This document shows positions 5,478 to 6,384 of a stretch of 13,572 bases of DNA, one piece after another. The stretch comes from a virus (taxonomy: Duplodnaviria > Heunggongvirae > Uroviricota > Caudoviricetes). The position numbers were made by a program, and so were the translations under genes. The stretch's first letter is position 1; the number at the start of each line of letters is the position of its first letter. The notes under the pieces were generated by a model. That model was not told the DNA's origin. It was given only the letters and a program-made list of their open reading frames with translations, and ran no database searches. The stretch is from IMG/VR virus record IMGVR_UViG_2703719354_000003. The stretch is one strand, 5' to 3'.

Positions 5478-5596
5478 AATCGCATCTCCTATTGAACGCA
5501 TAATAACAACAGGAAAAGCGATATTCAACGTTAAACATAGAATATTTATCGGAAAGCCGATAAACTAGCCAAGATAGAGAGGGGAGGAAAATCGCA
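5478..5596. promoter_or_regulatory. Divergent promoter/operator region of the immunity switch
   Basis: 20-bp palindrome TTTATCGG-AAAG-CCGATAAA at 5545-5564; minus-strand promoter-like TTGAAT (5523-5528) -17- TATTAT (5500-5505) ahead of the cro-like RBS; GGAGG RBS ahead of the repressor ATG. Confidence 0.6.
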
Positions 5597-6289
5597 ATGA
5601 CATTTTCAGAACGACTTGATTTAGCTATGCGCAACGCAAAATTTACGCAAGGTAGGCTGGCCAAAGAAGTGGGTATGGCTCAGTCCAGTGTTAATCAACT
5701 ACTTAACAAAGCCAACGGTTCCAGAAAAACAGTCGAAATAGCAAAAGTTTTGGGCGTTAACCCGGAATGGCTCGCATCGGGTGTTGGCCCAATGGAAATC
5801 GTGACCTCTGCAGACTCACACCAAATACGTAACATTTCTGAAGATTGGGTTACTGATTCGTATGTCGTGGATGTTTTAGACATCAGATATAGTTGCGGAC
5901 CTGGTAGTTATAACTCTGATTTTCCTGATATTGTCAGATCTATAGCGATAGAACCAGGATACGCATCAAGAGTTTTTGGCGGCAGACCAGCATCAGCAAT
6001 CAAAGCAATAAACGCCCACGGCGACAGTATGAAAGGCACAATAGACCCTGAAGACTTGGTATTTGTAGATGTATCAGTTCGCACATTTAATGGTGATGGT
6101 ATATACGCCTTTACATACTCTGGAACATCGCACATCAAAAGACTTCAAAAAATCAAAGATACTCTAACGGTGATATCTGACAACCCAGCTTACAAGGATT
6201 GGGCTATCGAACCGGAAGACTTCGAACAACTTCACATTGACGGAAAAGTAATTGTCAGTTGGCCTATGACACTACACCGTTTTGCATAA
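5597..6289 (+). CDS. cI: CI-like phage repressor (N-terminal XRE HTH plus C-terminal S24 LexA-like peptidase domain)
   Basis: HTH segment QGRLAKEVGMAQSSVNQLLNK; autocleavage signature AHGDSMKG with a downstream Lys (SHIKRL); divergent from the cro-like gene. Confidence 0.85.
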   Translation: MTFSERLDLAMRNAKFTQGRLAKEVGMAQSSVNQLLNKANGSRKTVEIAKVLGVNPEWLASGVGPMEIVTSADSHQIRNISEDWVTDSYVVDVLDIRYSCGPGSYNSDFPDIVRSIAIEPGYASRVFGGRPASAIKAINAHGDSMKGTIDPEDLVFVDVSVRTFNGDGIYAFTYSGTSHIKRLQKIKDTLTVISDNPAYKDWAIEPEDFEQLHIDGKVIVSWPMTLHRFA

Positions 6290-6307
6290 GCAAAAATCAT
6301 TTAACCC

Positions 6308-6334
6308 GCCCACTCTTAAGTGGGCTTTTTTTTT
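6308..6334 (+). terminator. Intrinsic terminator after the repressor gene
   Basis: GCCCACT-CTTA-AGTGGGC hairpin (6308-6325) followed by 9 T (6326-6334). Confidence 0.7.
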
Positions 6335-6342
6335 GGGAAAAA

Positions 6343-6384
6343 ATCGATAAACCGATTGACGGGTGAAATCGGTAAACCTATTAT
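6343..6384 (+). promoter_or_regulatory. Promoter TTGACG-17-TATTAT with overlapping operator-like repeats (pL-like)
   Basis: -35 TTGACG 6356-6361, 17-bp spacer, -10 TATTAT 6379-6384; ATCGATAAACCGAT (6343-6356) is a near copy of the 14-bp core of the switch-region palindrome (5548-5561); second inverted repeat ACCGATT-n9-AATCGGT (6351-6373) spans the -35 and spacer. Confidence 0.5.

Follow-up and report, generated by a model that had tools for sequence, protein, structure and literature searches.

Candidate CI operators at the switch and at a PL-like promoter of an Escherichia coli lambdoid prophage

Does a single repressor control both the switch and the downstream promoter of a prophage in which one 14-bp palindromic core stands on either side of the CI-like repressor gene? 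The question is raised by a stretch of 13,572 nucleotides of viral DNA (IMG/VR record IMGVR_UViG_2703719354_000003; hereafter the window, meaning this whole stretch), which is part of an Escherichia coli lambdoid prophage; a 2-kb query taken from it (4900-6900) was 99.8% identical to the E. coli E110019 chromosome. The initial annotation had proposed that one CI-like repressor acts at both places, in an arrangement like OR and OL of lambda. By comparative inference this proposal was supported by motif statistics, by conservation among variants, by an architecture shared with about a dozen related immunity regions and by covariation with the CI recognition helix, and the 14-bp sequences are very probably operators of the CI-like repressor, placed at the switch and twice at the downstream promoter. 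By analogy with the lambda map, that promoter (TTGACG/TATTAT) is PL and the intergenic region 5478-5596 is the OR switch.

Probable operators on both sides of the CI-like gene

The features that carry this reading are the following.

5545 to 5564 (core 5548-5561), no strand: OR3-type operator, a perfect palindrome; motif statistics, core invariant in seven E. coli variants
5597 to 6289, plus strand: CI-like repressor gene, 230 amino acids; helix-turn-helix (HTH) domain and Pfam Peptidase_S24 domain (7.5e-17); phrog_4
6308 to 6334, plus strand: predicted intrinsic terminator closing the cI transcript; terminator scan
6343 to 6356, no strand: candidate operator OL1, ATCGA-TAAA-CCGAT (1 mismatch), overlapping the PL -35; motif scan and repeat finder
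6356 to 6384, plus strand: PL-like promoter TTGACG-17-TATTAT (-35 at 6356-6361, -10 at 6379-6384); consensus scan 10/12, the top promoter match in the region
6368 to 6381, no strand: candidate operator OL2, ATCGG-TAAA-CCTAT (1 mismatch), overlapping the PL -10, 25 bp from OL1; motif scan and repeat finder

The switch sequence is a 20-bp palindrome, TTTATCGG-AAAG-CCGATAAA, whose arms are 8 nt long and whose 4-nt centre lacks self-complementarity, and its core is ATCGGAAAGCCGAT. As the initial annotation had placed them, with all coordinates right, this core lies within the palindrome and recurs abutting the -35 of the downstream promoter, where ATCGATAAACCGAT shares the first T of TTGACG. The form ATCG-N6-CGAT occurred in the window only at 5548 and 6343 (2 observed vs 0.26 expected), a count of two being reached in 4 of 200 shuffles. 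With the fuller consensus ATCGG-N4-CCGAT and at most one mismatch, three sites were found in the 13.6-kb window (5548, 6343 and 6368; 0.40 expected), and 2 of 200 shuffles reached three. The same three were the sole such matches in a 49.9-kb stretch around the near-identical E110019 prophage, where the whole element was scanned. Over those 49.9 kb the number of sites is by itself not significant (3 vs 1.57 expected; three are reached in 19 of 100 shuffles). What is significant is their placement, as the three are confined to about 260 bp of regulatory DNA in the two intergenic regions that flank cI. With two or three mismatches the motif occurred in the window at background frequency (9 vs 5.5 expected and 56 vs 46 expected, respectively), and weaker sites therefore need evidence other than counts; we accepted them only at positions homologous to clear sites in relatives.

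Downstream of cI, the single operator originally described proved to be two, OL1 on the -35 and OL2 on the -10 of PL. The repeat finder detected a 16-17-bp quasi-palindrome of the form AATCGG-N4-CCGATT twice in the same orientation, with 25 bp from one to the other: AAATCGATAAACCGATT (6341-6357) and AAATCGGTAAACCTATT (6366-6382). The second inverted repeat reported there (ACCGATT at 6351-6357 and AATCGGT at 6367-6373) is present in the sequence but is not a separate element, as it consists of the right half-site of OL1 and the left half-site of OL2. There is no room for a third OL site, because the cI terminator ends 8 bp before OL1. The hexamers of PL, a sigma-70-like promoter, were kept in the E. 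coli variants, and the promoter faces an operon that reaches xis and int.

The immunity module was present in 25 E. coli genomes at 90-99.8% identity, from which seven distinct versions were aligned. Among these seven variants the OR3 core was invariant and the bases beside it varied; OL1 and OL2 had one changed half-site column each, and the six columns between them that lie outside the promoter hexamers varied without exception (6/6). Altogether 4 of 50 half-site columns were variable vs 47 of 152 other intergenic columns (Fisher p = 7e-4, an approximate value since the rows are related). In the WAT, E423 and UMNF18 variants OL2 is fully symmetric, AATAGGTAAACCTATT (AATAGG-TAAA-CCTATT).

The switch holds, besides OR3, two putative promoters and two weaker candidate operators.

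5538 to 5566, plus strand: putative PRM (cI maintenance promoter), with a weak -35 TAGAAT (5538-5543), 17-nt spacer and -10 TAAACT (5561-5566); same geometry in relatives
5500 to 5528, minus strand: putative PR (lytic promoter), with -35 TTGAAT (5528-5523), 17-nt spacer and extended -10 TGtTATTAT (5505-5500); consensus scan 9/12 plus TG
5509 to 5522, no strand: OR1, weak candidate ACAGG-AAAA-GCGAT (3 mismatches) in the PR spacer; positional homology
5479 to 5492, no strand: OR0, candidate ATCGC-ATCT-CCTAT (2 mismatches), over the cro-like ribosome-binding site and just 3' of the predicted PR start; positional homology

That the switch contains a perfect palindrome was borne out, but its place is not over the lytic promoter: it occupies the 17-nt spacer of the putative PRM and is by position an OR3-type site. 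The corresponding site lies in the spacer of the cI promoter in relatives too (loci are given L numbers), as in TTGCCA-17-TACTAT (L007), TTGCTT-17-TATACT (L010) and TTGATT-17-TATAAT (L012), and the geometry of PR is likewise repeated, for example as TAGACA-17-TATTAT in L016. OR1 has as counterparts ATCGG-AAAA-CCGTT in L016, ATCGG-TAAA-GCGTT in L019 and ATAGG-TAAA-TCGAT in E. coli E423 and UMNF18, and the chance of three or fewer mismatches at this pre-specified position is about 0.002-0.004. The counterpart of OR0 is ATCGG-TTCT-CCTAT in L010, L016 and L019, and sites matching the type of the locus stand there in other relatives, always 30-35 bp from OR1; the distance is 30 bp in the window, like that in the other relatives whose CI has glutamine at residue 34. 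As in lambda, divergent cI (plus strand, from 5597) and cro-type (minus strand, from 5477) genes thus enclose intergenic operators that overlap both promoters. The lambda number of three operators each at OR and OL was not found: there are two at OL, and one strong plus two weak at OR. The earlier remark that operator copies are fewer than in lambda consequently holds for OL, and for OR only in that no OR2 is recognisable.

A second candidate for the lytic promoter, TTGGCT-17-ATAAAT, whose spacer contains the palindrome, was rejected for its poor -10 and for a -35 that is not conserved among variants. Two OR2 candidates, AACGT-TAAA-CATAG (5527-5540) and ATAGA-ATAT-TTATC (5537-5550), were poor matches and were not called. 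About 10 bp that L010, L016 and L019 carry between OR2 and the -35 of the cI promoter (columns 76-85 of alignment A3) are absent near 5537 in the window lineage and in L021, and through this loss OR1 and OR3 are 39 bp apart in both, vs 46-49 bp in relatives. The segment 5519-5541 (CGATATTCAACGTTAAAC..TAGA), which covers the PR -35 and the putative PRM -35 and holds an AACGTT palindrome, was almost invariant in the seven E. coli variants and L021, with no CI-type operator recognisable within it; it might be a site for another protein.

Operator sequence and the CI recognition helix

Residues 4-62 of the CI-like protein align to the N-terminal domain of the 434 repressor (E 3.6e-4), and within the recognition helix, Q29-SSVN-Q34-LL, Gln29 corresponds to Gln28, and Gln34 to Gln33, of the 434 protein. 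Matches to Pfam HTH_19, HTH_3 and Phage_CI_repr were all under their gathering cut-offs, and that to Peptidase_S24 was over it. In 434 complexes Gln33 reads the inner base pairs of the half-site. These contacts would fit a Gln/Lys change at residue 34 that goes with operator position 5, and such a change is what the relatives display.

CI homologues 67-83% identical to that of the window and bearing the helix AQSS[V/I]NQLL (Gln34) carry ATCGG-type sites at the same positions in E. coli L021, Salmonella L010 and Providencia L016, and in L019. In the switch of these relatives one site lies over the cro ribosome-binding site, the next 30 bp on within the spacer of PR, then a weaker one after another 19 bp, and one in the cI promoter spacer; downstream, two sites follow the cI terminator, the first fused to the -35 as CCGATTGAC, found also in L016 and L021, or as the variant ACGATTGAC, in L010. 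Operators paired downstream as in the window occur in L010, in L021 and in relatives with lysine at residue 34; L016 has OL1 at the -35 but its second site 45 bp downstream, and L019 has sites in the switch only, with none within about 300 bp downstream of cI. Where the helix is AQSSVNKLL or a close variant (L007-L009, L012, L018 and L020), full sets of AATCGC-N4-GCGATT sites were found instead: three or four in the switch and, in the three loci that retain the downstream promoter region, two downstream with a weaker third upstream of them.

A scan that left position 5 free (ATCGN-N4-NCGAT) returned G at this position in 34 of 50 half-sites from Gln34 loci, whereas the 32 half-sites from Lys34 loci had C there 29 times and G never (0/32). 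Site tables for 11 loci agreed: ATCG did not vary, the base at position 5 went with the type of locus, and most centres were AAAA, TAAA, AAAG or TTTA. The recognition helix of the Cro-like protein, QST[V/I]CDWLN, was nearly the same in five of six Gln34 and five of six Lys34 loci aligned, the exceptions being QPTV in L016 and L019 and SEWLN in L018. Operator position 5 therefore tracks CI and not Cro, which is indirect evidence for CI as the binding protein.

A wider survey of 80 loci from representative genomes of GTDB held other helix types only and no Gln34-type locus. Each of these more distant types came with its own 5+4+5 palindrome at the same spacing: AQPSVWKLT with ATAGC-N4-GCTAT, AQPTIWRLT with ATACG-N4-CGTAT and SQAAIQKI with ACAAC-N4-GTTGT. 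The last palindrome, which is close to the 434 operator ACAA-N6-TTGT, occupies the corresponding places (+30 and +47 of the switch) in the SQAAIQKI[T/S] loci L054, L056, L057, L048 and L052, among which only L054 has a 24-bp operator pair downstream of cI.

The rival explanations were weighed against these data. The genes at issue are listed here, the start of the second being taken from the RefSeq annotation of relatives.

5190 to 5477, minus strand: Cro-like HTH gene of the YdaS family; Pfam YdaS_toxin 1e-14; phrog_35 transcriptional repressor
6434 to 6844, plus strand: HTH_3 gene, first of the PL operon, a 'CII-like regulator' in PHROGs; Pfam HTH_3 2.3e-10; phrog_4836, 2e-50

With three HTH genes around the sites, another HTH protein could be their main user, either the Cro-like YdaS-family protein or the CII-like one encoded downstream of the promoter; YdaS binds the switch of prophage CP-933P (PMC8630535). 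The perfect palindrome over the cI promoter is also where a Cro-type protein would act first. We consider this explanation unlikely, however, since the base at position 5 changes when CI residue 34 does, with a Cro-like helix that is nearly the same in both specificity groups, and since the HTH_3 gene is not in the Lys34-type loci L007, L012 and L018, which still have paired OL sites. Since Cro and CI share their operators in lambdoid phages, and YdaS binds the CP-933P switch, use by the Cro-like protein as well is expected here and is compatible with operators that serve CI.

That short intergenic stretches rich in A/T recur by chance, without a common function, might be entertained because ATCG-N6-CGAT specifies only 8 bases and shuffled sequence does at times reach two copies, and because the three-site count over 50 kb is not significant alone. 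Three sites with at most one mismatch in the roughly 260 bp that flank cI, overlapping promoter elements, conserved relative to neighbouring bases and recurring at the same places in distant relatives while changing in step with the repressor helix, nevertheless make it highly improbable, and the comparative data effectively refute it. Nor are the palindromes at all likely to be nucleic-acid hairpins (terminators or RNA structures). The one in the switch has a folding energy of -8 to -9 kcal/mol (z from about -3 to -3.8) and was flagged as terminator-like on the minus strand, but any palindrome folds so; this one has only three G-C pairs and a poor T-run and lies upstream of the -35 of the sole predicted minus-strand promoter, so that no predicted transcript meets it. 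Folding of the OL region is not better than that of shuffled sequence (z = -0.7), and hairpins would not explain covariation with a protein helix.

Several points weigh against the reading of these sites as CI operators in a lambda-like map. The putative PRM has a poor -35 and scored under the threshold of the promoter scan; it was assigned by analogy, and the label OR3 is therefore by analogy as well. Window-wide counts cannot separate OR1, with three mismatches, and OR0, with two, from chance, their basis being positional homology, and the invariance of OR0 (10 of 10 half-site columns among the seven E. coli variants) is confounded by its overlap with the Shine-Dalgarno sequence, which could explain it. 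No OR2 is recognisable, the expected place having five mismatches and a deletion of about 10 bp in this lineage. Finally, it is the cI promoter and not the lytic one that has the best palindrome, which inverts the lambda order of affinities; match to consensus predicts affinity poorly (PMC3317979).

Proposed mechanism and known systems

For the proposed CI operators at the switch and at PL, we infer CI binding, promoter activity, the order of site occupancy and CI cleavage from sequence and comparison. Dimers of CI would bind the 14-bp sites through a 434-like HTH, most likely reading ATCG(G) half-sites symmetric about an A/T-rich 4-bp centre that is probably uncontacted. Occupancy of OL1 and OL2 would exclude RNA polymerase from PL and so keep off the operon with the CII-like HTH gene, the anti-repressor, xis and int, and binding at OR1 and OR0 would block PR and leave the replication operon silent. 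OR3 appears suited to negative autoregulation, limiting cI transcription, and the Cro-like protein would probably bind there first; repression may be aided by cooperativity among the sites or with OL, although this is speculation. The protein also has an S24 domain whose Ser/Lys dyad, S144 (GDSM) and K181 (KRLQ), aligns with the catalytic motifs of UmuD and is invariant in 14 homologues. Its linker (SCGPGS) contains C100-G101, the probable cleavage site; some relatives have A-G there (ASAGPGS), and G101-P102-G103 is invariant in homologues. Together, domain, dyad and linker predict RecA-stimulated self-cleavage and thereby SOS induction.

With lambda the window shares a switch of several operators between divergent genes of cI and cro type, a second early promoter, past cI and its terminator, that bears the operator consensus again, an operon from that promoter which ends in xis and int, and a CI with an HTH and a LexA-like S24 autopeptidase domain. 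Unlike the 17-bp lambda sites, the operators of the window are 14-16 bp long and built 5+4+5 (ATCGG-N4-CCGAT); OL has two sites and not three, OR2 cannot be recognised, the cro leader carries an additional site, the best palindrome covers the cI promoter and not the lytic one, OR and OL are only about 0.8 kb apart and the first PL gene encodes an HTH protein and not N. The format of the operators is that of phage 434 (ACAA-N6-TTGT; PDB 2OR1, 1PER and 1RPE), 14 bp in which the outer 4 bp of each half are conserved, the fifth base varies and the centre is A/T-rich. Sequence similarity is modest, and the outer bases are ATCG/CGAT and not ACAA/TTGT, which implies an immunity specificity different from imm434. 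The operator OR1 of 434 is ACAAGAAAGTTTGT, and ATCGGAAAGCCGAT of the window resembles it.

The Shiga-toxin phage 933W is lambdoid, with an OL that lacks a third site, three OR sites and an order of site affinities that departs from lambda (PMC3317979); the window shares the two-site OL and differs in repressor, in operator sequences and in its OR. In CP-933P (PaaR2, YdaS, YdaT), YdaS is the Cro analogue, the switch has four palindromes, the best of them over PRM and PR, and a PL-like promoter is under the same proteins (PMC8630535). The window is alike in its YdaS-type Cro analogue, switch palindromes and putatively co-regulated PL; PaaR2 is a different repressor with the repeat consensus GTTTAGTAA, and YdaT or toxin-antitoxin genes do not stand beside the switch of the window.

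Judged in this comparison, the locus is a real but ordinary lambdoid OR/OL system that combines lambda logic and a 434-like operator format with a new specificity. A bolder reading, which we hold only tentatively, takes the locus as an immunity specificity that is apparently undescribed, one of a large family of 434-like CI repressors in enterobacteria. Residue 34 (Gln or Lys) may in this family set the inner base (ATCGG or ATCGC) and with it heteroimmunity, and the switch would have four shared slots with an operator over the cro ribosome-binding site. In the lineage of the window the OR2 slot would have been lost, with the sole perfect site standing over the cI promoter. If true, that loss and that placement would imply a switch logic unlike the OR1/OR2 cooperativity of lambda. 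No description of these operators was found in the full-text literature, in which older subscription work is thinly covered, so that an earlier one is possible. Among deposited phages none had this immunity region, the closest CI match being 52% identical; phi467 was discarded as a carrier, since it shares the flanks only.

What the analysis provides is a concrete operator map for an uncharacterised immunity type of E. coli prophage, which predicts the promoters silenced in the lysogen and can help to predict superinfection immunity groups among related prophages. The pairing of Gln34 with G vs Lys34 with C is a natural test of helix-to-base specificity, and this testable rule, together with the family-wide operator map, is the most useful product; the general understanding of temperate-phage switches is unchanged.

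Gene context

The Cro-like gene is the first of the rightward, lytic operon, which runs on the minus strand from 5477 leftwards and continues with a small open reading frame (ORF), a superfamily 2 (SF2) helicase and a Toprim/zinc-ribbon primase. On the other side, the PL operon includes, in order, the HTH_3 CII-like gene, an SPFH gene, an ORF6N anti-repressor, excisionase and integrase. Its first position is thus held by a CII-like gene where lambda has N; HTH_3-related genes also lie 3' of cI in L010, L016 and L021, and not in the Lys34-type loci examined. The anti-repressor-like gene (9605-10429; phrog_1726, 1e-69) lies inside the operon that CI would repress.

In E110019, ssrA adjoins the near-identical prophage, with the type III secretion effector genes espM2 and espW alongside and sodC also beside it (locus L022, 3462000-3511900). 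That copy carries an IS3 insertion which is not in the window, and it is probably defective, because portal, terminase and Q are annotated there as pseudogenes.

The stem of the cI terminator (6308-6334) is retained in the WAT, E423 and UMNF18 variants although the loop and the stem end differ, the two forms being CCCACTC-CAC-GAGTGGG and GCCCACT-CTTA-AGTGGGC. A perfect 10-bp inverted repeat, ATGACATTTT at 5597-5606 and AAAATGTCAT at 6431-6440, has one arm over the start codon of cI and the other over that of the HTH gene downstream; about one such pair would be expected by chance in 1.1 kb, as a rough estimate only. A small ORF at 7956-8174, also in the operon presumed to be under CI, is labelled by RefSeq in E110019 as a ParE family toxin-like protein.

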